A model generated the notes under the pieces. That model did not search any database. It was given only the letters and a program-made list of their open reading frames with translations, and had not been told where the DNA came from. Made by a program: the position numbers and the translations under genes. From Clostridia bacterium (lineage in GTDB: Bacteria; Bacillota; Clostridia; Christensenellales; Borkfalkiaceae), in assembly GCA_021199295.1 (NCBI GenBank), contig JAJQII010000002.1, positions 7,756 through 71,755 on the forward strand: a stretch of DNA of 64,000 nt, read 5' to 3'. Numbering within the stretch: position 1 is the first letter of the stretch; every line of letters starts with the position of its first letter. This document shows positions 20,721-51,527 of the stretch, piece after piece.

Positions 20721-20785
20721 TTAACCGCAAATGTGCGTATTCTTTTGCCTTCACCCTTTGAGGGGACGCCTTACAAGTGGCACAA

Positions 20786-25862: not shown

Positions 25863-26270
25863 TGTCATTTCGAGCGGAACGTAGTGTAGTCGAGAAATCT
25901 CCTGCCTTCAGCGTTCTGCTGCCGTGCAACTTTAGTTGCGATGCCTTATCACCGCTTATAAGCGGCACATAACTACTTGTCATTGCGTGCGAGGGCGTAG
26001 CCCGACACTCTGCGTACCTTATTGTAAAATGTTTCAGATTATAAGGCGCAGATGCTTTGTAAAAGCCGTGGCAATCTAAGCCCATCGCCTTTCAGCTACC
26101 ATACCACCTTATTAATAGGTGTAGAATTATTAGGAAGTAACGTATTATTCTTAAATAACTAATCTACCGTCGTGCCTGCTGTTCGCGCGTCCGCGCGGGA
26201 TTGCCACGGGGTAGACCCCCTCGCAATGACATACGCGTTTCTGCCGCTTATTAGTATGCGCAATGACAAG
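25863..26270. repeat. Repeat cluster: GTCAT-hairpin (25864-25900), N module, S unit carrying a nested Q module (25988-26053), L module (26101-26231)
   Basis: Module-by-module identity with the other clusters. Confidence 0.9.
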
Positions 26271-26287
26271 TAAGCTTTCCTTGCAAG

Positions 26288-26314
26288 AAAAAAGCCTTCC
26301 CGAAAAGGGAAGGC
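26288..26314 (-). terminator. rho-independent terminator after the SDR gene
   Basis: Minus strand GCCTTCCC-TTTTC-GGGAAGGC followed by TTTTTT. Confidence 0.85.
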
Positions 26315-26331
26315 AATATGTAACATCAAAT

Positions 26332-27087
26332 TTACCTGCCGAGCCAGCCGCCGTCTACAGCTATAGTAAAGCCGTTTACGTAGTCAGAAGCCGAGGATGC
26401 AAGGAACACCGCAGCACCCTCTAAGTCGGCGGGAGTGCCCCACCTGCCTGCAGGTATGCGGGCAAGAATATCGGCGGAACGGTCTTCGTCCTGGCGGAGC
26501 GCCTGCGTGTTATTGGTTGCCATATATCCCGGGGCTATGCCGTTAATATTTATGCCATACTTAGCCCACTCGTTGGAAAGCGTCATCGTAACGCCCTTTA
26601 TTGCCGACTTAGAAGCCGTATAAGAAGGCACTCTTATGCCGCCCTGGTAAGAGAGCATAGATGCGATATTTATTATCTTGCCGCCGCTCTGCTGTTTTAA
26701 GAACTGCTGTGCAACCGCTTGCGTCAAGAAGAACACCGTCTTTAAGTTTACGTTCATAACGCTGTCCCAGTTCTCTTCTGAAAACTCTATAGAATCCTGC
26801 CTCTTGATTATGCCTGCGTTATTTACCAGAATATCAATGCGGCCGTATTTTGCAAGGGTTTCGTTTATAACCTTGGGGATAACGTCGCAGGACGAAAGGT
26901 CTGCTATTACGTTGTAGAAATTTTCATCGCCGAGCATCTCTGCCGTTTCGGTGCTGGGGCGGCGGGAAACGCCCACTACTTTTGCGCCCGCTTCCACGTA
27001 CGCGCGGCAGATACCCTGGCCGAGCCCCGTGTTGCTGCCCGTAACAATAGCTACTTTGCCTGCAAGGCTGAATTGATCCAAAATCAT
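26332..27087 (-). CDS. short-chain dehydrogenase, 2-dehydro-3-deoxy-D-gluconate 5-dehydrogenase/KduD-like
   Basis: 251 aa, GKVAIVTGSNTGLGQG, YTASKSAIKG catalytic motif. Confidence 0.85.
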   Translation of the reverse strand: MILDQFSLAGKVAIVTGSNTGLGQGICRAYVEAGAKVVGVSRRPSTETAEMLGDENFYNVIADLSSCDVIPKVINETLAKYGRIDILVNNAGIIKRQDSIEFSEENWDSVMNVNLKTVFFLTQAVAQQFLKQQSGGKIINIASMLSYQGGIRVPSYTASKSAIKGVTMTLSNEWAKYGININGIAPGYMATNNTQALRQDEDRSADILARIPAGRWGTPADLEGAAVFLASSASDYVNGFTIAVDGGWLGR

Positions 27088-27199
27088 TTTATAATTGCCT
27101 CCTTAATCACACAATATTTAATCTACCATATATTACCACGTTTTGGCGGTAATTTCAAGGGGGAAAACAAAAAATATCGCCTTCCCCCTAAAATTTTTG

Positions 27200-28054
27200 T
27201 CACTTGTCAAAACTTAATTTGCCGCCTGCGGGGATTTTATAGACCTTGCCGCGTATCTCTAACCACACGTCGGCATGCGAAGGGTTGTATACGCTTTCGC
27301 CGTCGTAGGAAAACACAAGGCTTTCGTAACACTTTACGTAATCGTAAATTTCCCCGTTGGTTGCGTACCATATGTCCGCCCTGCCGCCTGCCCGACGGGC
27401 AAAATTTTCCATTAAATCCCAGTTATTATTGTCGTCGAACTCAAAGGAATGTCCCCATACGTAGAACAGCCAGGGCTCGCGAGCCTTTACCGAATCGGAA
27501 GGCTTGCCGCCTAAAAACTTATCCGCAAGGGCGGAAAAACAATCTTCGGTATGGTGGCAGGTGGGGTTTAACCTCAGCCAGTCTTTGGGAATTTCAAAGG
27601 TGTGGGTTGACTTTGTAGTACGGGCATATACCACGCCCAATGAACGCAGAACGTTTACAATGTCGTCGTTAAAGTCGCCGTAAGCGTACGCCATTCCGTT
27701 TACTATCCTATTGTACTTGCTCTCCATATACGCACGGTTATCCGAAACCTCTTTTGCCGCCATATGCAGGGGAACTCTTGTCATAAATATATGTCTTGCC
27801 CCGTGCAGAGCAACTTCCTGACCGCTTTGGGCGAATGTACGGAAAGATTCTTCCTCGCCCATATGCCCGTGCCACTCGCCCTCTATATCAAAAAGGTCGC
27901 TGTTGAGGTTAAAAGTACCCTTAAGGGCATATTTATTGAACAGTTCTACCAGTCTTTTGTCGGCCTTCACGCCGTCGTCGTAGCTGAACGTAAGCGCCTT
28001 TTCCTTTCCTTCAGGGAAGCGCATATACCTTTCTTTATACATCTGGATAAACAT
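27200..28054 (-). CDS. polysaccharide deacetylase (NodB-homology) family protein
   Basis: 284 aa, FSYDDGV...HGARH... motifs. Confidence 0.75.
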   Translation of the reverse strand: MFIQMYKERYMRFPEGKEKALTFSYDDGVKADKRLVELFNKYALKGTFNLNSDLFDIEGEWHGHMGEEESFRTFAQSGQEVALHGARHIFMTRVPLHMAAKEVSDNRAYMESKYNRIVNGMAYAYGDFNDDIVNVLRSLGVVYARTTKSTHTFEIPKDWLRLNPTCHHTEDCFSALADKFLGGKPSDSVKAREPWLFYVWGHSFEFDDNNNWDLMENFARRAGGRADIWYATNGEIYDYVKCYESLVFSYDGESVYNPSHADVWLEIRGKVYKIPAGGKLSFDK

Positions 28055-28143
28055 AGAAACACCTCGTTTCTCGTGAATTTATTTTTCGGGTTGCACTGTT
28101 TGTTTTATTTCATTTACCATTATTATAACGGCACATAACCTCC

Positions 28144-28529
28144 TGTCATTGCGAGGGGCTCTACCCCGTGGCAATCTCGCGTGCGAGCGATAGCGACACT
28201 CTGCACACCAATTATAAAAGACTTCAGATAATAAGGTGCAGATAACTCGCGAACAGCAGGCTGGACGACAGATTAGTTGTTTAAAAATAATACGTTTATT
28301 CTTATCAATCTTCGCCTTATAAAAAGGTGATATGATAACTGAAAGGCGTTTTTGCTTGGCTTTCCGCGAGCCGCAACATTCTGTTGCTCTCGCGAGATCC
28401 TCACGTCGTGCCTTACGGCACTCCTCAGGATGACGTAGTATACTGTCGTTTGCCAGCGGTGGTATGATAGCCGAAAAACAATAGGCTTAGATTACCACGT
28501 CGCAAATAAATTTACTCCTCGCAATGACA
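28144..28529. repeat. Repeat cluster: inverted L module with nested Q (28182-28245), P module (28326-28437), S unit (to 28529)
   Basis: Same module order as the reverse complements of 61563-61853 and 63095-63338, circularly permuted. Confidence 0.9.
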
Positions 28530-28574
28530 TAATCCCTTGCCGCACTGTAAAAACGCAGACGGACTATAAAACTT

Positions 28575-30035
28575 TTACCTTCTCAATTTTTTGCTGCGCT
28601 TATAGGGCGAATACTGCAATTTCTTGCCCTTGGATGTAAACTGCCTTGCAACGCCCTTTATACGGTCACGCACGTCTTCAGGCAAAAGCCCCGACGCTTT
28701 TTTCCACCTGCCCGTCAAAAGCCTTGCCATAAACAGTACCGAACGCACAACCCAGTCCGAGCACATTGCTATCCAGTAGCCGAACGCGCCGAGCTGCAAG
28801 CCCACAACCTCGCTTGTCAAAAGCCAGCACAACCCCACCCTTACAATAAGCATAGAGCCCACGGCACAGTACATTACGTACTTCACGTCTGACGATGCCT
28901 TAAGCACGGCGGGGGAAGTAAATGACAACGGGTATGTTATAAACTGGAATGTAAGGCAGAAATACAGGCACTTAAGCGCTATCTCGTTGGCAACCTCTGA
29001 ATAGTTATACACGGGCACAACCCAGTGGCATATGCCCATAATCAAGCCCACGGCGCACGCGTTTGCGATATAGCATATAAGGAACATCTTTCGTATATAA
29101 TACTTGGTCTGGTCCACGTCGCCCGTGCCGATCGCCTGCCCCACTACCGTAAGGCAAGAGGTGTTTACGCCGCCTCCCACGACAGAGGCTATATTGTTAA
29201 GCTGCTTGGCCATCGTGTTAGCGTTAGCCTCGTAGTTGATGCCATTGGGATATGCGGCATCGTAAGTCGTGTAGCAGCTTGCGTTTACAAACGAGCTTGT
29301 CATAAGTTTGCCTAACTGGAAAAGGCAGCTCTCTATACCGCTGGGTATGGCTATAATAAGAATGTGCTTTACCATCTTCCAGTCAAAGCGGAACTTTTCA
29401 AATATATTTATATGGACTAAAAATCTCTTTCTTGTGATAAGAAACAGCACGTAGCACGCGGGCACTACGCGGGATATGAGCGTTGCCACCGCCGCGCCTG
29501 CCACGCCCCATTTAAACACGTACATAAACAGCGTGTTAAGAACAAGGTTTACGACAAGGCTCAAGCCCGCACTGACCATTGTAACCATGCTCTTGCGCTG
29601 TGCCCTTAACAGGGCGGCGCACACGTTAAACAATCCTATAAACGGGAAGGATGCCGCCGTAATGTAAAAATATGTCTGCTGGTAGCCGAATACCTCGTCG
29701 GTAACTCCGCCGAAGAACAGCTTTAAAAGGGGATAGTTCAGGGCCAAACATAAAAGGCAGATAGTCACCGAGGCTATAAACACTATGACAACCACGTGCT
29801 TTGCGCTTTTATTTGCCTCCTCTATCTTTTTAGCCCCTAAATATTGGCTGGTTATAATAACGCCGCCCGTAGCGAACGCCGAAAAGAGCTGTATTATAAG
29901 ATTATTTATATCGTCTACGTTGCCCACGGCATTGCCGGCATTGGCGTCTATCCAGCTGGAAACCATCATAGAGTCGAACATACCCAGCGAAGTAGAGAAG
30001 ATAGATTCCACCACTATAGGCAAAATGAGCCACAA
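28575..30035 (-). CDS. MATE family efflux transporter (true start probably upstream, near 30104)
   Basis: 486 aa, 12-TM pattern. The track start is a TTG. The frame stays open to 30104 with GGAGGTG at about 30110 and only ATT codons there. Confidence 0.85.
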   Translation of the reverse strand: MWLILPIVVESIFSTSLGMFDSMMVSSWIDANAGNAVGNVDDINNLIIQLFSAFATGGVIITSQYLGAKKIEEANKSAKHVVVIVFIASVTICLLCLALNYPLLKLFFGGVTDEVFGYQQTYFYITAASFPFIGLFNVCAALLRAQRKSMVTMVSAGLSLVVNLVLNTLFMYVFKWGVAGAAVATLISRVVPACYVLFLITRKRFLVHINIFEKFRFDWKMVKHILIIAIPSGIESCLFQLGKLMTSSFVNASCYTTYDAAYPNGINYEANANTMAKQLNNIASVVGGGVNTSCLTVVGQAIGTGDVDQTKYYIRKMFLICYIANACAVGLIMGICHWVVPVYNYSEVANEIALKCLYFCLTFQFITYPLSFTSPAVLKASSDVKYVMYCAVGSMLIVRVGLCWLLTSEVVGLQLGAFGYWIAMCSDWVVRSVLFMARLLTGRWKKASGLLPEDVRDRIKGVARQFTSKGKKLQYSPYKRSKKLRR

Positions 30036-30343
30036 AAGCTGTTTGCCCGTGAACAGCGTGTATTTTTTCCGTTTTACCGTATTTGCCTGCGCCTGCGTAA
30101 TAATTCACCTCCGCCACTGTTTGCCGCTTATAAATCAGCTGTGTAACATTATAAACTTTTTTAAATTATTGTCAACGGCGTGAAGCCCTTAAAACCATAA
30201 AAATTTATTACCGCACCGCAGGCAAAACCCGCCGCAAAAAATTTTTTTGCTTTAGATGTAAATTTTATAAAAACGGTGTTGACTTAAAATTTTAAAGTGT
30301 TATAATACGCATTGGAAAAAGACAGGTGTCACTTTTCTTCATT

Positions 30344-30965
30344 GTGGTCGAATTATAGCTGAATGTTCACTTCGCTTAGATTGCCACGGCTTTTACAAAG
30401 CCTCGCAATGACACACTTAAGCGGCAGAAACTTACCTGTCATTGTATGTGGGTAATAACGATAACTGAAAGGCGTTTTTGCTTGGCTTTCCGCGAGCCGC
30501 TTACGCTCTTAGTGCGCGAGCGTAAGCGACACTCTGCGCACCTTATTATAAAAAAATCTATAATGTGGCGCAGATATCCTCACGTCACGCTACGCTCTTT
30601 CATCTCGCATACGCGAGGGCAGCGCTGACGCTCTGTCATTGTTCCATATTAAACGGTACACAACAATCTGTCATTGCGTGCGAGCGATAGCGACACTCTA
30701 AGCACCTTATTGTAAAAGATTTCGATAATAAGGCTTAGATGGGCTCTACCCCGTGGCAATCCCGCGCGGACGCGCGACCAGCAGGCAGGACGGCAGATTA
30801 GTTGTTTAAAAATAATACGTTACTTTCTAATAGCTCTTCGCCTTGTATGCGGTGATGACGATAGCTGAATGTTCACATCGCTTAGATTGCCACGCTTCGC
30901 TCGCAATGACACAACTCTTGTGTCCCCTGTAATGGGAAGAGAGCCGCTTGCGGCGAAGGGGTTTA
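30344..30965. repeat. Repeat cluster in the MATE/yitT divergent spacer: S units (30344-30413, about 30850-30912), P with nested Q (30512-30575), Q (30679-30740), inverted L, inverted M3
   Basis: Module identity with the other clusters. Confidence 0.9.
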
Positions 30966-30975
30966 ATAATAAAAC

Positions 30976-31237
30976 CAAATATTTACGGGCAGCAACTGAA
31001 AAACAAATTCACGAGAAATTAAAACTAATAATGAGTTTTGGGCGTCACTGCGTTATACTCAAAACCCCTAAGTATTAAGGTAAAAGATTGAATTTTGCGC
31101 ATTATACAATCCGTACGCTAAAACAAAATGCGCAAAAGAAAGAAAAAACATTCGCAGGTACAAAGTTCCGAGAATGGTTTGTCTTTTAGAGTCGTGAATT
31201 TGTTTTTCAGCAGCAATTGAAAAACAAATTCACGAGA
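30976..31237 (+). repeat. Element X copy 3 (core 31077-31234, extension 31021-31076) flanked by a ~27-bp direct repeat and a chimeric half-hairpin
   Basis: GCAGCAACTGAAAAACAAATTCACGAGAA at 30990-31018 and GCAGCAATTGAAAAACAAATTCACGAGAA at 31209-31237. Confidence 0.85.
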
Positions 31238-31259
31238 ACAAAATTATAAAGGTAATTAT

Positions 31260-32183
31260 ATGAATAAGAAGAAAGTTGCAAACATTATAATCAGGCATCT
31301 TATAGCCACTTGCGGCTGTGCCCTTTACGCTTTGGGCGTGGAGCTCTTTTTAAGCCCTAATAACCTTGCCTCGAGCGGCATTACAGGTATAGGCTTAATA
31401 CTTGAAAATTACGGCATTTTATCTACAGGCTACTGGATTATTATCTTCAATATCCCCCTGTTTGTTCTGGGATTTGTATTCCTCGGCAAAGGGCTTATGG
31501 TATCCACAATCTACTCTACCGTAATTTCCTCGCTGTTTATGGAACTCTTTTCCTTCCTCTTCGGCGGCAGCTGCCTCGACATCCTGCCCCTTACAAGCAA
31601 CTCGCTTATCGCAGCCGTTGCCGCAGGTATTTTGTTCGGCCTTGGGCTGGGGCTTGTTTTCAGGGCACATTCCTCCACAGGCGGCACGGATATCATAGTA
31701 AAGATACTGCGCAAGAAATTCAGATACCTTGAAACGGGCGAGATTGCCTTTGCCGTAAACGTTATTATAGTAACGCTCGGCGCTATATTTATACAGACCA
31801 CCGAACTTGTTGCAGAAATGACTCAGGTAGAAAGGTGGATTTACTCGGTAATATCGCTCGCCACCGAAACGTTTACCTTCGACTACGTTTTATACGGCAG
31901 CAACTCGGCAAAGCTCGTCTACATAATACCCGGCGGCTGCGACGTGGAAACCATGTGCAGACACATAATGACCGAGGTAAACACGGGTGCGACATTTTTA
32001 AACGGCAAAGGCGCGTACACGAATACGGACAAGGAAGTTATAATGTGCGTATGCAGGAAAGCCGCCTTCCCCAAACTTAAAGATATCGTAAAGAAAGAAG
32101 ACCCCAAAGCCTTTATGATAGTCACTTCGGCAAAGGATATTTACGGCGTGGGCTACCAGGACCCCAATGCCGACGAACTATAA
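31260..32183 (+). CDS. YitT family membrane protein (DUF2179 C-terminal domain)
   Basis: 307 aa, 5-6 TM, C-terminal FPKLKDIVKKEDPKAFMIV. Confidence 0.8.
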   Translation: MNKKKVANIIIRHLIATCGCALYALGVELFLSPNNLASSGITGIGLILENYGILSTGYWIIIFNIPLFVLGFVFLGKGLMVSTIYSTVISSLFMELFSFLFGGSCLDILPLTSNSLIAAVAAGILFGLGLGLVFRAHSSTGGTDIIVKILRKKFRYLETGEIAFAVNVIIVTLGAIFIQTTELVAEMTQVERWIYSVISLATETFTFDYVLYGSNSAKLVYIIPGGCDVETMCRHIMTEVNTGATFLNGKGAYTNTDKEVIMCVCRKAAFPKLKDIVKKEDPKAFMIVTSAKDIYGVGYQDPNADEL

Positions 32184-32244
32184 TCTGGTATTGATAAATT
32201 ATCTTATTTTGGTTATTTTAATAATATCAACATAACTTTATAAT

Positions 32245-32276
32245 GTACCTCATAAAACAAGTGAGGTACATTTTTT
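32245..32276 (+). promoter_or_regulatory. terminator-like hairpin that sequesters the pdxS Shine-Dalgarno
   Basis: GTACCTCA-N9-TGAGGTAC followed by TTTTTT, then ATG at 32277. The only GAGG upstream of pdxS lies in the 3-prime arm. Confidence 0.5.
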
Positions 32277-33161
32277 ATGGAAAAATTTCTGCAGGAACGC
32301 TGGGAACTCAACAAAAACCTTGCCCAGATGCTCAAGGGCGGGGTTATTATGGACGTAACCACACCCGAACAGGCTAAAATTGCCGAAGATGCAGGCGCTT
32401 GCGCCGTAATGGCACTCGAACGCATACCCGCCGATATACGCGCGGCAGGCGGCGTGTCGCGTATGTCAGACCCTAAAATGATTAAAGGCATACAGCAAGC
32501 CGTCTCTATCCCCGTAATGGCTAAATGCCGCATAGGTCACTTTGCCGAAGCACAGATTTTGCAGGCGATAGATATAGATTACATAGACGAATCGGAAGTA
32601 CTTTCCCCCGCCGACGATATACACCATATAGACAAGCGCAAGTTCGCCGTGCCCTTCGTCTGCGGCGCTAAAGATCTGGGCGAGGCGCTGAGGAGAATTA
32701 ACGAAGGCGCTTCCATGATACGCACTAAGGGCGAACCCGGGACGGGCGACGTTGTACAGGCGGTAAGGCATATGCGGGCGATGAACGCCGAAATACGCAG
32801 GCTTGTATCTATGTCGGGCGACGAGGTATACGAGGCGGCAAAAAGACTGCAAGTGCCGTACGACCTTGCCCTTTACGTACACGAAAACGGCAGGCTGCCC
32901 GTGGTAAACTTTGCGGCAGGCGGCATAGCTACCCCCGCCGACGCCTCGCTGATGATGCAACTGGGCGCTGAGGGCGTGTTCGTAGGCAGCGGCATTTTTA
33001 AATCGGGCAACCCCGCCAAACGCGCGAGGGCCATCGTACAGGCGGTGACAAACTACGCCGATGCCAAACTTATTGCCGAACTTTCAGAAGATTTGAGCGA
33101 AACCATGGTAGGTATTAACGAACAGGAAATAGCCCTTCTTATGGCGGAGCGCGGCAAATAA
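32277..33161 (+). CDS. pdxS: pyridoxal 5-prime-phosphate synthase, lyase subunit
   Basis: 294 aa, ...[38 protein letters not shown]... Confidence 0.97.
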
Positions 33162-33733
33162 TGGTAATCGGCGTGCTGTGCCTGCAAGGGGCTTTTTACG
33201 AACACAGGAAAATGTTCAATAGTTTAGGCATATCCACCGTCGAATTGCGCAAAGCAAGCGATCTGGACAAGCCTTTTGACGGGCTCGTTATCCCAGGCGG
33301 GGAGTCTACCGTGATGGGTAAGCTTTTAAACGAGCTGGGCATGGCTGAAAGGCTTAAAGGCATGATACAAGGCGGCTTGCCCGTCTACGGAACATGCGCG
33401 GGGCTCATACTTCTGGCAAAAAAGATAACCAACGACAGCAGAAAGGGGCTTGCCACTATGGATATTTCGGCAGAGCGCAACGCCTACGGCAGACAGCTTG
33501 GCAGCTTTGCCACCGACACGCGTTTTAAGGGCATAGGAACTATCCCCGCCGTATTTATACGCGCACCGTATATTACCGAAGTGTGGGGCGATACCGAGGT
33601 GCTTGCCGAGGCAGACGGCAAAATAGTAGCCGCCCGCGAGAATAATCAGCTGGTAACGGCTTTCCACCCCGAACTTACCGACGATTTACGCATACACGAA
33701 TATTTTATAAATATGGTAAAACACCATACATAA
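33161..33733 (+). CDS. pdxT: pyridoxal 5-prime-phosphate synthase, glutaminase subunit
   Basis: 190 aa, ...GTCAGLILLAK..., ...FHPEL...; overlaps the pdxS stop. Confidence 0.96.
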   Translation: MVIGVLCLQGAFYEHRKMFNSLGISTVELRKASDLDKPFDGLVIPGGESTVMGKLLNELGMAERLKGMIQGGLPVYGTCAGLILLAKKITNDSRKGLATMDISAERNAYGRQLGSFATDTRFKGIGTIPAVFIRAPYITEVWGDTEVLAEADGKIVAARENNQLVTAFHPELTDDLRIHEYFINMVKHHT

Positions 33734-33820
33734 GGCATTATTTACGGCAAATTACAAAGTAAATCCAGGCGGCGGCAAATTTTGCCGCCGCTTGGATACA
33801 GTATAAAAAAGCGGGAAAAC

Positions 33821-34312
33821 ACGATAGCATTACTTAGATTGCCACGGTGGGGAGGGTAAAGCCCATCTAAGCCATATTACCCGAAAAACCCCTTCGCCAC
33901 AAGTGGCGAAGGGGTTTACAAGGGCAACGCCCTTGTCATCTTGAGCGAAGTCTGAAAGACGTAGTCGAAAGATCTCCTACCTTAAGTGCTCGATTGTCGT
34001 GCAACGCTGGTTGCAATGCGCTACCACCGCTTTAAAGGTCATAATGATAACTGAATGCCGCCGTAATTAGTCGGTCGCGAGCCGCAACTATCGTTGCTCT
34101 CGCGGGATTCTTCGACTCCGCTCAGAATGACGGAAAAGCGACCACTCCCCCCTCGTCATCCTGAGGAACGCGTAGCGTGACGTGAGGATATCTGCGCCAC
34201 ATTATCTGAAACCTTTTACAATAGGGTGCGCAGAGTGTCGCTACGCTCGCACGCTAAGAGCGAAGCGGCTCGCGGAAAGCCAAGCAAAAACGCCTTTCAG
34301 CTACCGTTAGAC
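33821..34312. repeat. Repeat cluster downstream of pdxT: partial S, M3-like perfect hairpin, GTCAT-hairpins (33935-33975, 34104-34131 reverse, 34155-34192), N, Q (34189-34252), inverted P
   Basis: Module identity with the other clusters. Confidence 0.9.
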
Positions 34313-34317
34313 CACAT

Positions 34318-34347
34318 TAAAAAAGCGGGAAACATTCCCGCTTTTTT
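34318..34347. terminator. bidirectional rho-independent terminator
   Basis: AAAAAA-GCGGGAA-ACA-TTCCCGC-TTTTTT, about 90 nt downstream of tRNA-Arg on the minus strand. Confidence 0.8.
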
Positions 34348-34433
34348 GGTTCTGCGCGGATTTAGTAAGGAGGCGCAGCCGACGGATTAGCGATTGCTAA
34401 CCGTAGGCTCAATCGCGTCACCGCGGAAATTTT

Positions 34434-34509
34434 TGGTGCGTCCGCCGAGGCTCGAACTCGGAACGAGAGCGTCGGAGGCTCTTGTTTTATCCAATTAGAC
34501 TACGGGCGC
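34434..34509 (-). tRNA. tRNA-Arg (anticodon CCG), CCA encoded
   Basis: Hand-folded 76 nt. Acceptor GCGCCCG/CGGACGC (C4-A69 mismatch), anticodon arm AGAGC-CUCCGAC-GCUCU, T arm CCGAG-UUCGAGC-CUCGG, D stem with one C-A mismatch. Confidence 0.8.
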
Positions 34510-34512
34510 ATG

Positions 34513-34689
34513 TCACCTATATCTGTTCTCTTCTTCGCTGTAAATAAATCCCGCCGCATTCAGCCGCCCGTTAATTAAGGCATATTCCCAGCCCAATTGG
34601 CTGCATAGCTCTTCTACGGAAGGGCAGCCGTCACGCAGCTTCATATTGACTATCGACAGCAAAATAAAATCATCTTCGGGCAGTTCCAC
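34513..34689 (-). CDS. DUF4250-like small protein
   Basis: Not in the ORF track (58 aa, GTG start after GGGGAGA). Own translation VELPEDDFILLSIVNMKLRDGCPSVEELCSQLGWEYALINGRLNAAGFIYSEEENRYR. Confidence 0.7.
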   Translation of the reverse strand: MELPEDDFILLSIVNMKLRDGCPSVEELCSQLGWEYALINGRLNAAGFIYSEEENRYR

Positions 34690-34758
34690 TTATCTCCCCC
34701 AAACCATAGCCCTGTTTCGGGCATTGCTAAAAATTATTATAGCACACCCGTGTGCGCT

Positions 34759-34786
34759 TTGCAATTGATTTTTTTTGTGTTATACT
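34759..34786 (+). promoter_or_regulatory. sigma-A-type promoter of mnmA
   Basis: TTGCAA, a 16-nt spacer, then TATACT, about 30 nt upstream of the ATG. Confidence 0.65.
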
Positions 34787-34816
34787 GATTAAAACAAACT
34801 TTTAAGGTACACGGCA

Positions 34817-35890
34817 ATGAAAAAATCGGTAGTAGTCGGCATGAGCGGCGGCGTAGACAGCTCGGTTGCCGCTTTAATTTTAAAACAGCAGGGTTACGAC
34901 GTAACGGGGCTGTTTATGCAAAACTGGGAAGAAAACGACGATTCGGGCGCATGCACTGCAGAGAGCGACTTCGCCGACGTAAGGCGGGTATGCGGCATGC
35001 TCGATATCCCCTACTACACCGTAAATTTTGCAAAGCAATACTACGACCGCGTGTTCACTTACTTTTTAGCCGAATACAAAGCAGGCAGAACGCCCAACCC
35101 TGACGTGCTGTGCAACAGGGAAATCAAATTCGGCCCTTTCCGCGAATATGCCGCAACGCTCGGGGCGGACTATATCGCCACGGGGCACTATTGCGGCATT
35201 GAACATTGCGGCGGCAGACACCGCCTGCTCAAAGCCAAAGACGCGGGCAAAGACCAGACCTACTTTTTAAACCAGGTAAGGGAAAGCCAGCTTGCAAACG
35301 TACTCTTTCCTCTCGCAAATTTAGATAAAAAAGAGGTACGCGCCATTGCCGAGCAAAACGAGCTTGCCACCGCCGAAAAGAAGGACAGCACGGGCATTTG
35401 CTTTATCGGCGAAAGAAACTTCCGTAAATTTTTGCAAAATTATCTGCCCGCGCAAAACGGCGAGATACGCACGCTGAACGGCAAAACCGTGGGCGAGCAT
35501 ATCGGGCTTATGTATTATACTATAGGGCAGCGAAAGGGGCTCAACCTTGGCGGTACTCGCGGCGAAGAAGGCAGATGGTTTGTGGTAAAAAAGGACTTGC
35601 AGAACAATATACTCTACGTTTCCCACGGCGACGAAACGCCCCTGTATTCGGCGGCATGCACGGCGACAGAACTCAATTTTATAGGTTTTGAACCGCCTGC
35701 GGCGTTTGAATGCACGGCGAAATTCCGTTACCGCCAGCCCGAACAAAAAGTTTGGGTAAAAATCGAGGGCGGCAAGATGCAGATTGAATTTTCCGAACGC
35801 CAGCGTGCCGTAACCGAAGGGCAATATGCCGTGCTTTACCTTGGCAGCCAATGCCTCGGCGGCGGCGTGATTGACACGGTAGTATATTGA
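34817..35890 (+). CDS. mnmA: tRNA 2-thiouridine(34) synthase
   Basis: 357 aa, VVVGMSGGVDSSVAA PP-loop, ...DQTYFL... Confidence 0.96.
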   Translation: MKKSVVVGMSGGVDSSVAALILKQQGYDVTGLFMQNWEENDDSGACTAESDFADVRRVCGMLDIPYYTVNFAKQYYDRVFTYFLAEYKAGRTPNPDVLCNREIKFGPFREYAATLGADYIATGHYCGIEHCGGRHRLLKAKDAGKDQTYFLNQVRESQLANVLFPLANLDKKEVRAIAEQNELATAEKKDSTGICFIGERNFRKFLQNYLPAQNGEIRTLNGKTVGEHIGLMYYTIGQRKGLNLGGTRGEEGRWFVVKKDLQNNILYVSHGDETPLYSAACTATELNFIGFEPPAAFECTAKFRYRQPEQKVWVKIEGGKMQIEFSERQRAVTEGQYAVLYLGSQCLGGGVIDTVVY

Positions 35891-36165
35891 AACTAACGCC
35901 GCCGAGGCATAAGGGTATCCCGAAAAAGATTTGCCTGCAAAGGTTTTTCGGGAAGAGGAACAGAAATTGAAGTAATATTGCCGCCAGTCTGAAAGGCTGG
36001 CGGCTTTGAACGTAAATTTCTGTGACGAGGCGGCGGCGTGATTGACACGGTAATATATTGAAACTAATGCCGCCGAGGCATTAGGGGAAAGCTATTAAAG
36101 CGGTAATATGATAGCTGAAAAGCGTTTTTGCTTGGCTTTCCGCGAGCCGCTTCGCTCTTAGCGTG
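35858..36165. repeat. 53-bp duplication of the mnmA 3-prime end (35858-35910 and 36029-36081) bracketing a 118-bp hairpin-rich insert, followed by a truncated P module (36103-36165)
   Basis: The two 53-mers differ at 2 positions. The first copy contains the mnmA stop codon. Confidence 0.9.
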
Positions 36166-36221
36166 CGAGGGCTTTATTGCAAACGGTAATCGTTGCAATC
36201 AGATAAAAAACACCATTTTAC

Positions 36222-36252
36222 TAAAACAGCCTTCCCGAAAACGGGAAGGCTG
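36222..36252 (-). terminator. terminator after the orphan 565-aa gene
   Basis: CAGCCTTCCCG-TTTT-CGGGAAGGCTG followed by TTTT on the minus strand. Confidence 0.7.
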
Positions 36253-36312
36253 TTCTGATACGTAATTTTCAAAATAATACAATTAACCAATCCGTGTGCA
36301 AATTAAAGGCTA

Positions 36313-38010
36313 TCATAAATCAGACTTTTCAGCCACGTTCTTCTTTTCACGGGTTTGCTCTTGCGAAGCCGTAATATCAGCAACCTTTTTCTTGGGGGCA
36401 GTGCCTAATACCTGGCCGGATATTTCGTTTTGCTTTTCTTTGTTTGCCTCACTTAATTTTACTCGGTTAGTTCCTGTGGCAGCGGGCGCAGCTTTTGCCT
36501 GTTCAGCCTGCTGGGCTTCACGCTTTGCCTTGTTTGCCTCATATTCGCGCCTGTCCATTTCTTCACGCTCAATCTTGGCTTCCTCGGATCTCTTGTGATC
36601 TTCTATAACTGCCTGCTTAGCGCGTTCATTATCAACCCGTTCACGCCGCTTAGCCTCAGCCGTTTGCTGCCTGACGATCTGCTTTACGTCGCTGGAAAGT
36701 TTGTTTATGTAAGCTTTCTGCTGCCTCTGTTCGAGTTTTAACTGGTTTTTGCGTTCAGTTTCTGCCGCCTTCTGGCGGGCTTTCTGTTCCCTGTCAACCT
36801 TTTTATAGTTTGCCTGAACTTCTCTGAGTTCAGCCCTTATCTTATTCTTTTCCGCCCTGTTGGCAGCCTGTCTTATCCTGTCTTTGTAGCCGTTGACTAC
36901 CTGCTTACGCTTTTCCGATTCGGCTTTCTTTTCTTGCTTCAGGTAAATTTTATGCTTCTTTTCAGCCTCTTTCCTTGCCTTTTCCGTAATCTTTTGCGCG
37001 AGCTTTGCCGCCTTTAAATCGGCAGGGCCTACCACGTGCTTTATATTGTTTTTATCCTTTGCGAAGTTGGCGTGGGCAATGGGAATGGTCTCAACGTTGC
37101 ACTTCCCCTTGCCGTCCATCGTAAATTTTGTAAACTCAACGATCTTTCTACTCGCTATAGCGTCAACTATAGCGCTTTTGGCTTTCTTAAGATTTTCTTC
37201 GTCGAGTTTCTTGTCGCCCGTCTCGCGGTAATCGATATTGTGACCGTCTATGCTGAAGCAGTTGATAAAATGCTTATAGTCGGCGTTTACGTCAGGGTTG
37301 CCCATGCAGCTTTCAGCCTGCAGGTTACCTAAAAGCTCATCAAATGCCCTTGTCCTCCCTTCAGGACCATGCCCCACATATCCCTTTTTAGTCATGTCGT
37401 ACATAGGCGACTTTGTCTCGTCGCCAAAGGTAATCATACGGGGTTCTTCGGGTTCTTTGAGCCCTACGTTATAGGTATTTTCCTTTGTAACGAGGAAATC
37501 AGGGCGAGTGACATACCCCTTTTCCACGTCGTACGCGGCGGTGTCAAACCAAAGACTATCCTTTCGCAGATTGGCGTCACGGTATGCCTTGTACTGCATT
37601 ACCCATTCAATATAATTAGGATCTTCAGTGGATTCCCTGCCGTTCACTCTTCTTTCCGCCCTGTATTCACTGGAGGTAAGATAATCCTCTACATTTTTGG
37701 TAAAATCTTCAACAACAGGCCGTAACGCCCTATAATTTACTTCCTCGGGCAACCTTATGCCGCCTGCAAGGAAATAATCGTATTCATCCTTAACATCCTC
37801 TTTGTAAACGGCATTGTCAAGCCTTTGATTATAGTGTTCTTCAAAACCGTTTTTTACGAGAGTTTCCCGTATCTTTCTATATACGATATTTCTTAAAGGT
37901 TCAGCATAATCGCTGGGAGCAGACAGATCTTTGCTCATAGCCTTTATAACGTCCTTAGATATTCTGTCCGTTACTTGGTCTAAAAGACTACTCGAATTTT
38001 CACCAGGCAT
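36313..38010 (-). CDS. hypothetical protein: ~330-aa unrecognised N-terminal domain plus ~230-aa K/E/R/Q-rich coiled-coil tail
   Basis: 565-aa uninterrupted ORF with GGAGGA upstream. No signal peptide, TM segment or catalytic motif that I recognise. Confidence 0.7.
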   Translation of the reverse strand: MPGENSSSLLDQVTDRISKDVIKAMSKDLSAPSDYAEPLRNIVYRKIRETLVKNGFEEHYNQRLDNAVYKEDVKDEYDYFLAGGIRLPEEVNYRALRPVVEDFTKNVEDYLTSSEYRAERRVNGRESTEDPNYIEWVMQYKAYRDANLRKDSLWFDTAAYDVEKGYVTRPDFLVTKENTYNVGLKEPEEPRMITFGDETKSPMYDMTKKGYVGHGPEGRTRAFDELLGNLQAESCMGNPDVNADYKHFINCFSIDGHNIDYRETGDKKLDEENLKKAKSAIVDAIASRKIVEFTKFTMDGKGKCNVETIPIAHANFAKDKNNIKHVVGPADLKAAKLAQKITEKARKEAEKKHKIYLKQEKKAESEKRKQVVNGYKDRIRQAANRAEKNKIRAELREVQANYKKVDREQKARQKAAETERKNQLKLEQRQQKAYINKLSSDVKQIVRQQTAEAKRRERVDNERAKQAVIEDHKRSEEAKIEREEMDRREYEANKAKREAQQAEQAKAAPAATGTNRVKLSEANKEKQNEISGQVLGTAPKKKVADITASQEQTREKKNVAEKSDL

Positions 38011-38315
38011 AATTAAATCCTCCTGTTATCAGGTATTATTATCTTAATAAACGCAACACCGCATAGATAGTGAGCAAAAATACTTATATGGAGCGTTGCC
38101 GTATTCCATATAATTTTACGAAAAAAATGGCTATCCGTTACACCGTAAAAATATTTTACGGCAGACGGCTTTAATGCGGTGGCGTGGTAATCCAAGTAAC
38201 TTATTATACAGATATCATTCAACCTGTACTAATAAAGCGGTGATATGGTAGCCGCTACAATATTGCACAATAGTAACAAAAAACGAAAAGTTTTTTCACA
38301 AACCTGAATTTTGTA

Positions 38316-38345
38316 TTGACTTTACCATTATAAAAATGGTATACT
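38316..38345 (+). promoter_or_regulatory. candidate promoter of the SGNH lipoprotein gene
   Basis: TTGACT, an 18-nt spacer ending TGG, then TATACT. Confidence 0.55.
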
Positions 38346-38538
38346 TTTACCGACGAAATTTTTGTCGCAAAAAAAAGCAGAAAATACGGCGAAAACTACA
38401 AAAAATTATTCAATTTCCCGCCCCTGATTCGTGGTCAGGAAACGTATACTTTTTTTAGAATTTTCCCGTCTTTCACCTGCTTACGGCTTAAAAATATTTC
38501 CGTTAAGGCGGTTTTGTTGCGGCAAAAGGGGAGAATTT

Positions 38539-40413
38539 ATGCAAAAAATAAAAAAACTGCTTGTAGCCTTTGTTTCGTTCTGCATGGCGCTGTGCATGGT
38601 CTTCGCAGCAGCCTGCAACAGCGTAACAATAAACAACTCTAACAATTCAGGCAGTTCCGAGAGTTCAAGCAGCTCTGAAAGTTCGAGCAGTTCCAGTTCA
38701 GAGAGTTCGAGCAGTTCCAGCTCAAGCAGCAATTCGGAAAGCAGTTCAGTAAACGACCAGACGGGCTCTACAGGCGGCAACGAAAATACCAACGACGAGG
38801 AAGAAGAAGACTACACACTTACTTCCACCACCGTTTACTTTGTAGGCGACAGCACTGTATGCCAATTTTCTGATACTTATTACCTGCCCCGTTACGGCTA
38901 CGGCACTCAGTTTGCAAATTACGTAGACACAGACTATGTATCAGTGGTAAATTTAGCCCTTTCGGGCAGAAGTTCCCTTAGCTTCACCACAGAAACTAAC
39001 TACAACGTTTTATGGGACGGCGGCACGAATACAAACACTAAAGAAACGGTAAAAGCTATAGGCAAGGGCGACTATCTTATAATAGGTTTCGGCCATAACG
39101 ATGAAAAAACTGATGCTGATAGATATACTGCTCCCACGCTTGACGCTGTAGATACAGCAGGCTCTTTCCAGAATATACTCTACTATAAATACATAAAATT
39201 AGCCTTGGATGCAGGCGCTACCCCCATTTTATGTACACCCATAGTACGTTATAGCTCAAGCGGAACATATACAGGAAATTCCATTCACGTCACAAGTAAC
39301 GGCGACTATGCCGCATGTATATGCGACCTTGCGGAAGATAAAGGCATTACCTGCGTGGACCTTACGACAATAACAAAAACACTGTATGAAACACTCCAGG
39401 AAGACGCGCAGTGGTTTCATGCCTTTTCTAAAGCAGACTTAGCCTCTGACGGCGATGAGCAAGTGAGAGAAATAACAAGTACAACTAACACAACCGTCTC
39501 GGTTGTTCCCAGTGGCATTGATACCACACATATAAATATGTACGGCGCAAAGATGATTTCTTACCAGATAGCTACCGCCCTTCGCACCGCAAGGAAGACT
39601 TGCAACCTCGGCTATTATGTTAAATCTGATATATCCGAGCCCACAATAGCTAACGACCTTGAAGCCGCTTATAATACGTCTTATAAATATAGGGCTTACG
39701 AGTCGCCTAACCTGAGTAGCCTTACATCAGTCGGATCAGTAACCGACTCGCAGGATAATACCACCGAATACAAATTATATGAAACAGTATTTGGCAATGT
39801 AGGCGGATCAGATAAGATTGCTAACTATACCATTTCAGCCGATAACGAAAACGGAACATATACCATATCCAATCTGGGCACAATAAGCGGTAAAATAGCT
39901 TCCAGTTCTGATACGGTTGCCGGAGTATTTACACAAATCGATATTACAAAAACATTTACCGCAAGCGTTAAAGCAAAAGTTACCGGTATATCTTCTGATT
40001 TAGCAGATTCGACGCCTTCACAAGCAGCATACGGCTTAATGCTTAGAGATGATATGTATATTAACACTTCAGATTCTGGCATTTCAAGCAACTATGTAAC
40101 AGCAGGACTCATAGACCAAGCCAACGGCAATGTAATTTTCAGCAGGGAAAACGATACCCTTACTAAAGGTTCAAAAACCTCCGCAATGGCTGTTGGTGAC
40201 GAATATACGCTCTCTATAACTGGCGGCGGACAGATATTTACCGTAACTGTAACAACCTCCTCTGGTTACTCGTATGCACAAGATTACACCGACTTCTCAT
40301 TTACCGCAACAGATACAAATTACGTATATCTCTGTATGTTTGCTGTAAGAGGTTTGGCAGTTGAATTCAGCGATTTCACATTTGCTATTACTGGCGATGC
40401 TGAAAGCGCATAA
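38539..40413 (+). CDS. lipoprotein: poly-Ser linker, SGNH/GDSL hydrolase (rhamnogalacturonan acetylesterase-like) and a C-terminal beta-sandwich-like domain
   Basis: Trimmed to ATG 38539 (GGGGAG upstream). Lipobox FAAAC. Block I VYFVGDSTVC, GFGHNDE, and block V DTTHIN. Confidence 0.8.
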   Translation: MQKIKKLLVAFVSFCMALCMVFAAACNSVTINNSNNSGSSESSSSSESSSSSSSESSSSSSSSSNSESSSVNDQTGSTGGNENTNDEEEEDYTLTSTTVYFVGDSTVCQFSDTYYLPRYGYGTQFANYVDTDYVSVVNLALSGRSSLSFTTETNYNVLWDGGTNTNTKETVKAIGKGDYLIIGFGHNDEKTDADRYTAPTLDAVDTAGSFQNILYYKYIKLALDAGATPILCTPIVRYSSSGTYTGNSIHVTSNGDYAACICDLAEDKGITCVDLTTITKTLYETLQEDAQWFHAFSKADLASDGDEQVREITSTTNTTVSVVPSGIDTTHINMYGAKMISYQIATALRTARKTCNLGYYVKSDISEPTIANDLEAAYNTSYKYRAYESPNLSSLTSVGSVTDSQDNTTEYKLYETVFGNVGGSDKIANYTISADNENGTYTISNLGTISGKIASSSDTVAGVFTQIDITKTFTASVKAKVTGISSDLADSTPSQAAYGLMLRDDMYINTSDSGISSNYVTAGLIDQANGNVIFSRENDTLTKGSKTSAMAVGDEYTLSITGGGQIFTVTVTTSSGYSYAQDYTDFSFTATDTNYVYLCMFAVRGLAVEFSDFTFAITGDAESA

Positions 40414-40550
40414 GATTATCAAGGCTTAAGTATATTGCAAGCTATAAAATTCAGGCTATAACGCAAGCTATAAGTTTACATAATAAAAACAATAGCCCCG
40501 TGAATATAGCCAAATTAACCTTATCCAAAGGTTTAAAAAACACACAAAAA

Positions 40551-40577
40551 GCAGACGGCAAAACCGTCTGCTTTTTA
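40551..40577 (+). terminator. rho-independent terminator
   Basis: GCAGACGG-CAAAA-CCGTCTGC followed by TTTTT. Confidence 0.85.
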
Positions 40578-40624
40578 AATTGCAACAAATGATACTACCT
40601 CATTCTAGCCTTTCACTTAAAACG

Positions 40625-41038
40625 GTGGTATGATAGCTGAAAAGCGTTTTTGCTTGGCTTTCCGCGAGCCGCTTCGCTCTTAGCGTGCGAGGGCGTAGCC
40701 CGACACTCTGCGCACCTTATTGTAAAGGTTTCAAATTATAATGCACAGATAGCCTCACGTCACGCTTCGCTCTTTCATCTCGCATACGCGAGGGCAGCGC
40801 TAACGCTCGCGCAGGATGACAAGGGCTGCGCTCATGTAAACCCCTTCGCCACTTCGTGGCCCTCTTCCCCTCTCAGGGGACGCAAGGGCTGTCATCTCGA
40901 CCGAAGTGGAGAGATCTCCAATCAGTAGCGTTCATTGTACCTACCCCTTATCTTCCCATGCAAGGGGAAAATACCAAAAGGTGGTATGATAGCTGAAAGT
41001 TATCCAGCTTAGATTGCCACGCTGCGCTCGCAATGACA
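40625..41038. repeat. Repeat cluster: P with nested Q (40685-40750), M3 (40841-40888), GTCAT-hairpin (40891-40917), S unit (to 41038)
   Basis: Module identity with the other clusters. Confidence 0.9.
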
Positions 41039-41079
41039 TATCCCGTTAAACACACCATTCCCCCGCAAGTATGGGGCAA

Positions 41080-42913: not shown

Positions 42914-42986
42914 TTTTTAATTACCCCCGACATATGGCGTGATTAATTGTTTATTTTATTGCCTCTTTGCTTTTTATAAGGACGAA

Positions 42987-43046
42987 TGGCAGCTGAAAGT
43001 CGTCCGGCTTAGATTGCCACGCAAACTACGTTTGCTCGCAATGACA
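42987..43046 (+). repeat. solitary S unit
   Basis: TGGCAGCTGAAAGTCGTCCGGCTTAGATTGCCACGCAAACTACGTTTGCTCGCAATGACA. Confidence 0.9.
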
Positions 43047-43106
43047 TACTACTTATTTATCATTATGTACAAATAAACGGCAGTAACCTATTTGTCATAC
43101 ACATTA

Positions 43107-43796: not shown

Positions 43797-43842
43797 ACAC
43801 CTATTATAACTTAAAATATCCCCCGCGTAAACTTTTTTAAAG

Positions 43843-43873
43843 CAAAAAACAAAGCGGAACAATTACGTTCCGC
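43843..43873 (-). terminator. terminator after the ferredoxin gene
   Basis: Minus strand GCGGAAC-GTAATT-GTTCCGC followed by TTTGTTTTTT. Confidence 0.8.
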
Positions 43874-50976: not shown

Positions 50977-50977
50977 A

Positions 50978-51517: not shown

Positions 51518-51527
51518 AATAACTCCT

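Follow-up and report, generated by a model that had tools for sequence, protein, structure and literature searches.

The DNA analysed here, which we call the window, is a 64,000-nt stretch of a metagenome-assembled genome (MAG) of a Clostridia bacterium, and all feature coordinates given below are positions in this whole stretch unless another contig is named. Its genes are of a housekeeping kind and include a ribosomal operon and genes for SecY, MacB, CobW, EF-G, SDR, MatE, YitT, PdxS/T, MnmA, LysS, GreA and PEPCK, among others; the nearest matches of the uL2 protein are to Bacillus, Listeria and Staphylococcus. Beyond 20 kb, the intergenic stretches are unusually long (0.2-1.2 kb) and are built as mosaics of recurring modules, among them the subject of this work, a family of short hairpins with the layout GTC-AT-NNN-GAG ... 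N'N'N'-AT-CT. These hairpins are probably repetitive extragenic palindromes (REPs) of the CGTC-tagged superfamily, that is, short non-coding intergenic DNA repeats of a non-autonomous mobile kind.

A first-pass annotation of the window had proposed this shared architecture, and a search for GTCATNNNGAS bears it out, with 25 matches in the window against 1.13 expected from 100 dinucleotide-preserving shuffles (maximum 4). Each unit begins with an unpaired (C/T)GTC tag and continues with AT plus the three variable bases, GAG (GAC once), an inner segment, the complementary N'N'N' plus AT, and finally C followed by T or C. The stem is two-tiered: a 5-bp basal helix is followed by a purine-rich internal loop of 3x3 (or 2x3) nucleotides, in which GAG stands opposite GTG, GAA or GCG, and then by a hypervariable apical hairpin of free sequence, 9-40 nt long. 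The claim that the variable triplet is always complementary holds with one exception, as the exact reverse complement of AT plus NNN lies within 70 nt downstream in 24 of the 25 copies (background probability 0.085) and the sole copy lacking it, at 28490-28529, reads GTAAT in place of GCAAT, which gives one G.T pair. The triplet takes seven values in the window, all with their complements: TGC 17 times (counting both arms of a palindrome at 58633), CCT four times, and TTC, CTT, TCT, CTC and TAC once each.

Twenty-four of the hairpin copies are dispersed through about 11.5 kb of intergenic DNA, which holds 38 occurrences of GTCAT compared with 53 in 52.5 kb of coding DNA, and there are none in the ribosomal-protein operon that occupies the first 16 kb of the window. 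In these intergenic copies the tag is TGTC for the TGC, TTC, CTT and CTC types and CGTC for the CCT and TCT types. All copies read GTC-AT...AT-C, so that the first stem pairs are A-T and T-A, and the 3' tail in the window is C followed by T or C (CTA, CCC or CTC), while elsewhere it is mostly CCAG or CTC. The first-pass annotation had confined the family to 25864-40917, which proves too narrow, since it spans 20811-63269. The TAC/GTA match, at 49979-50023 (+), lies inside greA and has A in its tag, no inner hairpin and T as its tail; it is most likely a chance match, and because about one such match is expected we treat it as noise and leave it out of the family.

The first TGC-type copy, TGTC-ATTGC-GAG-[CCGC TTTTG GCGG]-CGTG-GCAAT-C at 20811-20845 (-), lies within a U-H1-T unit at about 20774-20870 and folds at a predicted -9.7 kcal/mol (z -2.9). 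Further TGC copies are found at 22366-22392 (-), with a short apical segment (GAGCGCAGCGCG); at 22550-22582 (-), with the apical segment GGGG TCTA CCCC and joined to C/E modules; at 22661-22695 (+), with the apical segment GCTTT GTA AAAGC (z -3.5); at 28490-28529 (-), where the G.T pair falls on the GTCAT strand; and at 30379-30413 (-), 55200-55233 (-), 61673-61705 (-) and 63153-63186 (-). The copy at 43012-43046 (-), with a z of -3.0, is part of a block, about 160 bp long, that was inserted at the 3' end of the MTS methyltransferase gene. At 58633-58667, two TGC heads form a perfect 35-nt palindrome without strand (TGTCATTGCGAGGGGG TCT ACCCCCTCGCAATGACA; -19.3 kcal/mol, z -10.6). Across the TGC copies, predicted DNA folding gives the expected two-tier hairpin at -7.6 to -9.7 kcal/mol (z about -3). 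The inner palindromes quoted in the first description are all present, as GGGG-TCTA-CCCC, CCGC-TTTTG-GCGG, GCTTT-GTA-AAAGC, CAAAC-GTA-GTTTG and ACGC-GTA-GCGT.

The other variants, like the TGC copies, lie where they had been reported. They are a TTC/GAA copy at 25863-25899 (+), with the core GAGCGGA...GTCGA and a fold at shuffle level; a CTT/AAG copy at 33934-33974 (+); a TCT/AGA copy with a CGTC tag and a CC tail at 34106-34132 (-); a CTC/GAG copy with GAC for GAG at 40890-40916 (+); and the CCT/AGG copies. One of the latter, with a CGTC tag, is at 28396-28435 (-) and has an alternative ACGTC/GACGT pairing (z -2.6); another, at 34154-34190 (+), is directly followed by the module M3 in reverse orientation (core 34225-34239); and two more, at 61748-61788 (+) and 63229-63269 (+), are each followed by a B hairpin and a T module. 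Three of these four had been described as inverted, which is right for 28396-28435 only, as the last two are on the plus strand in the same orientation as 34154.

In this lineage the hairpins are joined to the modules U, T, B, C/E, M3 and P. The U module (AACGGCACAnAAC-N5) stands upstream of TGC hairpins and the T module (CTAAGC-N9-TTTCAGCTAYCATACCACC; core TTCAGCTAYCAT; 15 sites) downstream of them; in other TGC copies, a CGCGCG hairpin comes next, with a conserved C/E segment of 45 nt. Behind the CCT and TCT hairpins stands the B hairpin (CGCGAGAGC...GCGGCTCGCG GAAAGCCAAG; GGCTCGCGGAAAGCCAAG; 7 sites), with T after it. Head-to-head pairs occur at 22550/22661, 34106/34154, 61673/61748 (across a 42-nt spacer) and 63153/63229, in addition to the double-head palindrome at 58633. 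Three composites of 240-290 nt, at 25978-26231, 28144-28435 and 30669-30911, have inverted hairpins at their ends with the tags pointing outward. The first has as its left arm a TGC hairpin at 25978-26075 (+) that is split by the 66-nt module M3 (M3 core 26004-26018) and as its right arm a TGC hairpin at 26199-26231 (-). The second begins with a TGC hairpin at 28144-28176 (+), whose adjoining CGCG hairpin has an M3 insert (core 28195-28209), and ends with the CCT copy at 28396. The third consists of a TGC hairpin at 30669-30761 (+), split by M3 at the same position as in 25978 though in the other arm of the composite (core 30692-30706), and a TGC hairpin with the minimal apical segment GAGCGAAGCGTG at 30885-30911 (-). 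A longer mosaic block, 40614-41060, has the order T (reversed), B, M3, interrupted CCT hairpin, P, CTC hairpin, T (reversed) and TGC hairpin, the last at 41012-41038 (-) forming its right end.

M3, whose core is GACACTCTGCGCACC, has seven sites, and the hairpins that it splits are broken at a constant point, directly behind GTCATTGCG. The composites at 25978 and 30669 have it in opposite arms, and at 28176 it occupies the loop of the CGCG hairpin. The CCT-type hairpin at 40751-40821 (-) is split after GTCATCCTG, at the equivalent position, by a different insert of 41 nt. A relative, contig JAJPXK010000123 of GCA_021205485.1 (hereafter L242), also has M3 in a TCT hairpin. As an independent secondary insertion into hairpins, M3 directly follows GTCATNNNG both in that TCT hairpin and in composites that are otherwise equal but have it in one arm or the other. 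Its sites are 25988-26052, 30679-30740, 28181-28250, 34191-34255 (-) and 40680-40750 in the window and 1350-1460, 1530-1650 and 4965-5030 in L242. In make-up, M3 consists of TGCGAG, a small covarying hairpin, GACACTCTGCGCACC, an AT-rich loop and GGYGCAGAT, and the whole forms a long hairpin.

We also noted units that consist of the head alone, GTCATNNNG(AG) followed by a C/T-rich spacer of 11-13 nt, without a 3' arm; they recur one to four times with a period of 22-24 nt, often upstream of complete hairpins, and are not nested insertions. They occur at 21109 (-), 26267 (-), 30438 (+), 30635 (+) and 43094 (+) in the window, and in other hairpin-bearing contigs at L020 5990-6080, L099 10790-10900, L097 660-830, L171 880-1330 and L213 890-1040. 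We considered the T module as a promoter, since its reverse complement resembles an extended -10 element (TGnTATGAT), and rejected this because the hexamer is too variable among copies. Separately, at 28122-28149 (-), the reverse complement of a TGTCAT head and its upstream U module makes a near-consensus sigma-70 promoter (ATGACA, 16 nt, TATAAT; 11/12) that points away from the hairpin; it is the sole near-consensus copy of head plus U, the others being weaker.

Contigs of IMG/VR were scanned with patterns that leave the triplet free. With both halves of the basal helix anchored (GTCATNNNGAGCGNAGCGNNNNNATC), at least 120 loci were found, and among the matches listed 151 of 160 were complementary, 148 of these being TGC/GCA. 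In an unconditioned scan, the 5' half and the loop were fixed, the first N was required not to be T (GTCATVNNGAGCGNAGCGA; GTCAT-VNN-GAGCGNAGCGA), and the 3' half was left free. On viral contigs the exact complement directly follows in 65 of 138 such matches, with about 0.4 expected (CCT 40, CCC 10, GCT 6, ACT 4, GTT 2, CGC 2 and CAT 1), and the remaining matches look like the background of a 15-base pattern. In a gap-free alignment of 104 unique sequences, the 5-pair helix has a covariation score of 0.273, compared with 0.151 +/- 0.014 for shuffled alignments (0 of 500 reach the observed value), changes on both sides fill 52 cells compared with 22.7 +/- 3.7, and all slid registers score below the true one. 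Exact complements are found where the base before GTC is T (31 of 50) or C (8 of 39) and are absent where it is G (0 of 12) or A (0 of 3), so the tag is (C/T)GTC.

The apical stem behaves similarly. With the TGC basal helix held constant, all four outer pairs form in 33 of 80 unique apical segments, drawn from 16 different arms, compared with 2.6% for shuffled partners, which upholds the proposal that the inner segments vary freely and yet stay palindromic. In the sequences scanned, then, the refuting outcome named in the first-pass annotation, with non-complementary triplets as frequent as complementary ones, is not what is seen. The co-varying basal triplet and the self-complementary apical segments together support the view that pairing within a single strand matters. 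Part of the covariation among repeat copies stems from a few palindromic master copies that have spread, and to that extent does not testify to selection acting site by site. Of 202 unique hairpins, 187 fold better on the GTCAT strand than on the opposite one, owing to the purines that this strand contributes to the internal loop (GAG opposite GAA, GTG or GCG), and the single-stranded form of the GTCAT strand is likely the functional one.

The hairpin design, with other complementary triplets too, is present in more than 240 IMG/VR contigs. Plasmid pSA1 of Novosphingobium resinovorum carries a short TGC form, CGTCATTGCGAGCG(N)AGCGAAGCAATCCAG, at 40 or more places, as inverted pairs; this form is also found on plasmids of Methylosinus, Methylobacterium, Legionella, Aulosira, Calothrix and Fischerella, in a Thermodesulfovibrionales MAG and in human-gut phage records. 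The CGTC-type hairpins seen here thus come from Proteobacteria, Cyanobacteria, Nitrospirota, Clostridia (the window and L242) and many phage-like contigs. The modules around them behave differently. BLAST searches of the composite mosaics against plasmid and phage records gave no match beyond the 30-nt hairpin itself, and a T-H1 junction pattern run over 185,579 species-representative genomes, the window's own genome not being among them, gave a single coincidental match in the Thermodesulfovibrionales MAG. The mosaics are therefore specific to the lineage and the hairpin is not.

L242 shows full synteny with the window from YitT to LysS, its MnmA is 87% identical, and it carries hairpins of the same family and M3 at other places. 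The intergenic region between the GDSL and DUF697 genes is 87 bp in L242 and 666 bp in the window, the terminator downstream of the GDSL gene being kept in both; the mosaic block 40614-41060 is absent from L242. Between the TP-methylase and MTS genes the interval is 6 bp in L242 and 193 bp in the window. Here, by comparison with L242, a repeat block of about 160 bp (region 42914-43106) has entered the last codons of the MTS gene at 43107-43862 (-), which now ends in ...NTGSTV*, and a remnant of the old end, ...ITPYVGGN*, persists downstream of the insert. Conversely, L242 has a block of about 110 bp with a TCT hairpin and a P module between Fer4 and PSP1, and this block is absent from the window. 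With blocks present or absent at orthologous sites, the hairpin blocks turn over as DNA.

A literature search with literal 11-mers returned primers and unrelated matches only. The published family that these hairpins resemble is the CGTC-tagged REP superfamily (CGTC-1 to CGTC-4) of Di Nocera, De Gregorio and Rocco (2013, BMC Genomics 14:522, PMC3733652). Its members have an unpaired CGTC tag (TGTC or CCTC allowed), a stem that starts with A-T/T-A, and a short tail, mostly CCA; inverted dimers predominate, and subfamilies with alternative complementary stem residues coexist (PMC3733652). They include dRS3 of Neisseria (CGTC-1) and RPE-4 (CGTC-4) and RPE-6 (CGTC-1) of Rickettsia, and the hosts belong to five phyla, with Firmicutes and Clostridia not in the text (PMC3733652). 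The window hairpins agree with these REPs in the tag, the A-T/T-A start, the numerous dispersed intergenic copies, the inverted dimers, the coexisting stem subfamilies and the absence of an adjacent transposase. In addition, the CGTC-1 peptide VIPAKAGI of the published supplement (PMC3733652) corresponds to the DNA GTCATTCCCGCGAAAGCGGGAATC, and the CGTC-3 peptide VIAGLDPAIH back-translates to GTCATTGCCGGGCTTGACCCGGCAATCCAT, with the ATTGC/GCAAT base of our TGC type. The differences are that the hosts here include Clostridia, along with Nitrospirota and Cyanobacteria, and that nearly every window copy stands within a mosaic, whereas clustering was described as rare (PMC3733652). For the 3' tail, short and unpaired here too, the likeness to the consensus CCA may be partial, with CCA(G) in most of the other genomes and C(T/C) in the window. 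The class itself is already described; what is new here is the two-tier stem variant, the new host lineage, the NIME-like mosaics with position-specific nested inserts, and the turnover between relatives.

Several results weigh against this assignment. The published stem is continuous (8-9 bp with a 4-5 nt loop) and that of the window is two-tiered, although bulged forms may have escaped the search used in the survey (PMC3733652). The TTC, CTT, TCT and CTC copies and some CCT copies fold no better than shuffles (z -0.9 to +1.2), a marginal predicted stability, and because of this the support for the non-TGC variants comes from covariation and not from energy. G.T pairs divide 41 to 31 between the strands, which gives no clear strand signal. 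Comparison with L242 defines no precise empty or filled site and no target duplication, because L242 is too diverged, and alignments give no exact position for the junctions of M3 or of whole units. As for an enzyme, no transposase, recombinase or nuclease candidate stands among the genes of the 64-kb window, the CGTC REPs of the survey have no transposase gene associated or adjacent (PMC3733652), and when 4,613 open reading frames (ORFs) from 238 hairpin-bearing loci were clustered, only structural families of phages or gene-transfer agents recurred. Genes for REP-associated tyrosine transposases (RAYT), finally, have flanks of another type. GTAG-type REPs flank a RAYT-like gene found among the hairpin loci (L175), GTAG or GTGG palindromes accompany 43 of 45 diverse metagenomic RAYT loci (184 matches), and RAYT genes on plasmids of Kovacikia, Chloroflexota and Gloeocapsa have GTAG/GTGG palindromes as flanks.

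This last group of results bears directly on an alternative that we consider unlikely, namely that the hairpins are REPINs moved by a canonical RAYT that reads their tag as E. coli RayT reads GTAG, with the inverted pairs as the mobile unit. The substrate that the E. coli protein binds is the folded REP, with the unpaired GTAG as the part it reads (PMC6006769). In favour of a RAYT, Bertels and Rainey (bioRxiv 10.1101/2021.07.10.451892) linked the Neisseria REPIN ATTCCCGCGCAGGCGGGAATC (dRS3/CGTC-1) to a Group 2 RAYT and reported REPIN decay where the RAYT is frameshifted, and inverted dimers are common in the window (34106/34154, 61673/61748 and 63153/63229). We searched for RAYT genes with tblastn of E. 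coli RayT on all fetched DNA and plasmids and with a RAYT profile on metagenomes. At the frameshifted RAYT of N. gonorrhoeae, a CGTC-1 (dRS3) dimer lies 130-230 bp upstream, but the immediate inverted flanks on both sides are GTAG-type (GTAGGTCGGAT...). This locus comes from NZ_CP119142.1 and NZ_CP119140.1 (L247), which are 2.17-Mb N. gonorrhoeae chromosomes filed as plasmids in PLSDB. A Methylomonas plasmid RAYT has a GTAG-tagged palindrome on its upstream side only, and near the 45 metagenomic RAYT loci there were nine stray CGTC hairpin matches, none flanking symmetrically. No RAYT match was found on Novosphingobium pSA1, despite its 40 or more hairpins. As the RAYT genes inspected have GTAG-type flanks, we find no support for the canonical RAYT clade as mobiliser of the CGTC type, in agreement with the survey, which reports no association (PMC3733652).

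The GTAG REPs and REPINs themselves (REP/BIME of E. coli, and those of Pseudomonas) are like the window hairpins in their unpaired tetranucleotide at the hairpin foot, covarying stems, inverted pairs and BIME mosaics. They differ in that their tag is GT[AG]G and that of the window (C/T)GTC, and in that the GTAG type flanks a RAYT gene whereas no such gene is linked to the CGTC type. Some RAYT-flanking GTAG REPs share an apical GAGCG-N-AGCG mini-hairpin with the CGTC type, for instance GTAG-GATGGGT-GAGCGTAGCGTT-ACCCATC (L289, L292 and other metagenomic loci). This hints that the two superfamilies may be related, through a related enzyme or a common origin, and it speaks to some extent for a RAYT as well.

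The organisation of the window mosaics recalls the neisserial intergenic mosaic elements (NIME), arrays in which dRS3 alternates with RS modules; these vary between strains and were described as confined to Neisseria (Bentley et al. 2007, PMC1797815). In both, a CGTC-type hairpin punctuates arrays of other repeat modules (50-150 bp in NIME), the array length differs between related genomes, and the hairpin serves as a secondary insertion site. The window mosaics resemble NIME in this and are not members: the dRS3 sequence ATTCCC N8 GGGAAT is absent from the window, and the modules U, T, B, C/E, M3 and P are unrelated and specific to this lineage. Nf prophages of Neisseria integrate at dRS3 by means of a recombinase that the phage encodes, and the arrays serve as substrates for recombination (PMC1797815).

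A second alternative follows the proposal made for dRS3 and NIME and would have the hairpins be mainly landing pads or recombination sites for recombinases (e.g., of the IS110/Piv type) or small elements, with the mosaics growing by insertion and recombination. REPs are targets of IS110-family elements. Beyond the Neisseria precedent, this would suit the shared position, after GTCATNNNG, at which M3 and another insert enter different hairpins in both genomes, and the shuffling of modules among arrays. We nevertheless find it improbable as the main explanation, given that there is no recombinase or insertion sequence in the window or in L242, that the alignments yield no exact junction rule, and that it does not explain hundreds of hairpin copies across many phyla.

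The first-pass annotation had left the choice between a structured RNA and a DNA hairpin recognised by a protein, and of these the DNA hairpin is the better fit. A structured RNA family, either cis-acting (an mRNA stabiliser, an attenuator or a protein site) or made of small RNAs, would have covariation as the mark of selection on RNA folding, and both helices do co-vary. The better folding of the GTCAT strand and the G.U-compatible pair in the copy at 28490-28529 would fit as well, and in the view of Di Nocera et al. transcription extends to many REPs (PMC3733652). TGC copies in the window favour the minus strand, which is the gene strand and probably the leading strand, by 12 to 2, or 12 to 5 with interrupted copies counted. 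This bias reflects the orientation of composites, because the CCT partners face the other way, and relative to the flanking genes the window copies divide about 10 to 5-6. Across the 238 unrelated loci, the 182 hairpins that lie between co-directional ORFs divide into 87 sense and 95 antisense (p = 0.6), and this lack of a link between orientation and transcription argues against a cis-regulatory RNA. Neither the inverted dimers and the perfect double-head palindrome, nor the gain and loss of copies between relatives, nor the presence of copies in phage, plasmid and chromosomal intergenic DNA of many phyla favour an RNA. There is likewise no gene-family association and no consistent promoter or T-tract. 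In Rfam 15, only a tRNA-Arg in the window reaches its gathering score, and the hairpins have no overlapping match even when the threshold is relaxed to E <= 5. Readings of CTGAGGA...GAC and GAG/GTG as a hammerhead or a kink-turn were set aside by eye, as the conserved cores do not fit. An RNA family is therefore very doubtful, and we regard the hairpins as DNA repeats that come and go, not gene-specific RNA elements. As a separate observation, a sub-threshold Rfam match to the L20 leader at 40537-40661 (-) (31 bits with a gathering score of 58.7; E 0.02) overlaps a terminator and T/B modules and is probably spurious.

That the matches are chance or ordinary intrinsic terminators can be dismissed as exceedingly improbable, for although the greA match does look like chance and some variants fold as shuffles do, the excess of matches and of complementary triplets stands against it, as does the sequence 3' of the hairpins, which is CTAAGC, CCCGCG or CTCC with no T runs, the terminator-like sites of the same intergenic regions being separate hairpins nearby.

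Two further groups of small elements provide comparisons. The Rickettsia palindromes RPE-4 and RPE-6 likewise insert in intergenic DNA and at gene ends, but they are often in frame inside genes and have perfect stems and alphaproteobacterial hosts. The IS200/IS605-derived PATE elements are miniature elements that insert 3' of a fixed tetra- or pentanucleotide and have a related tnpA or tnpB in the genome. Their subterminal hairpins are on the same strand, whereas those of the window composites are inverted and not co-oriented; no tnpA or tnpB is present in the window.

Returning to the reading of the hairpins as CGTC-tagged mobile REPs, recognition of a DNA hairpin by a protein is the accepted view for the GTAG type and suggests how the units might move. 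As non-autonomous mobile DNA, they would fold on the GTCAT strand when it is single-stranded, and a trans-acting nuclease or transposase that reads structure and tag and is specific for single strands would cut and re-join the folded strand. The protein contacts would be the invariant tag, the A-T/T-A stem base and the GAG loop, and for the co-varying triplet and the apical stem, pairing alone would be enough. By analogy, the mobilising enzyme could be an HUH (Y1) single-strand transposase distinct from the E. coli-type RAYT clade, a candidate that we put forward tentatively and short of calling it probable. Among classes of mobiliser, we infer a ranking with HUH first, a hairpin-targeting recombinase second and a purely host-level role third. 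The creation of promoters, the remodelling of 3' ends and the stabilisation of mRNA could be side effects and would not be the reason for the repeats. A more speculative proposal, to which we give little credence, is that the CGTC hairpins of this lineage form the termini of miniature elements in a nested family and at the same time the sites where these preferentially insert, with an enzyme other than a canonical RAYT moving them; this family may comprise the U-H1-T units, the composites with inverted hairpins, and M3, which enters right after GTCATNNNG.

Some other features of the window lie apart from the hairpins. A low-GC block at 50239-52640 (0.39 compared with about 0.47) carries genes for an N6/N4 DNA methylase, a PD-(D/E)XK nuclease and a Dam-type methylase and is probably an acquired restriction-modification island. 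Two tandem repeats are coding, one at 21384-21563, a histidine-rich stretch in the gene of a CobW-family GTPase, and one at 23108-23410, an 18-nt periodic repeat in the gene of a DUF2188 protein. The only other public assembly that we found to contain the organism is the short-read Logan assembly SRR15221298, from which four contigs of 1.6-8.6 kb were recovered (L001, L240, L241 and L243). In the two cases judged, the contigs end close to genes that border repeat-rich intergenic regions, which is consistent with hairpin repeats breaking short-read assemblies.

The window adds to the CGTC-tagged REPs a host phylum not listed in the survey (PMC3733652) and NIME-like mosaics outside Neisseria, and its two-tier stem points to the positions that would be read (tag, A-T/T-A stem base, GAG loop) as distinct from those for which pairing suffices. 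Turnover is evident from blocks gained or lost between the window and its relative, one of which, by its insertion, gave a methyltransferase gene a new 3' end. The repeats also generate spurious small ORFs, and annotators should mask them. CGTC REPs are widespread, and the 2013 survey left them without a dedicated transposase, with which our checks agree. If the hairpins of this lineage were indeed the ends and targets of a nested family, its mosaic-rich genome could reveal the missing mobilising activity of this "orphan" superfamily, and the same reading could explain the head-only arrays with a period of 22-24 nt in unrelated contigs. To find what copies CGTC REPs, a complete genome from this lineage, rich in repeats as it is, would be well suited.

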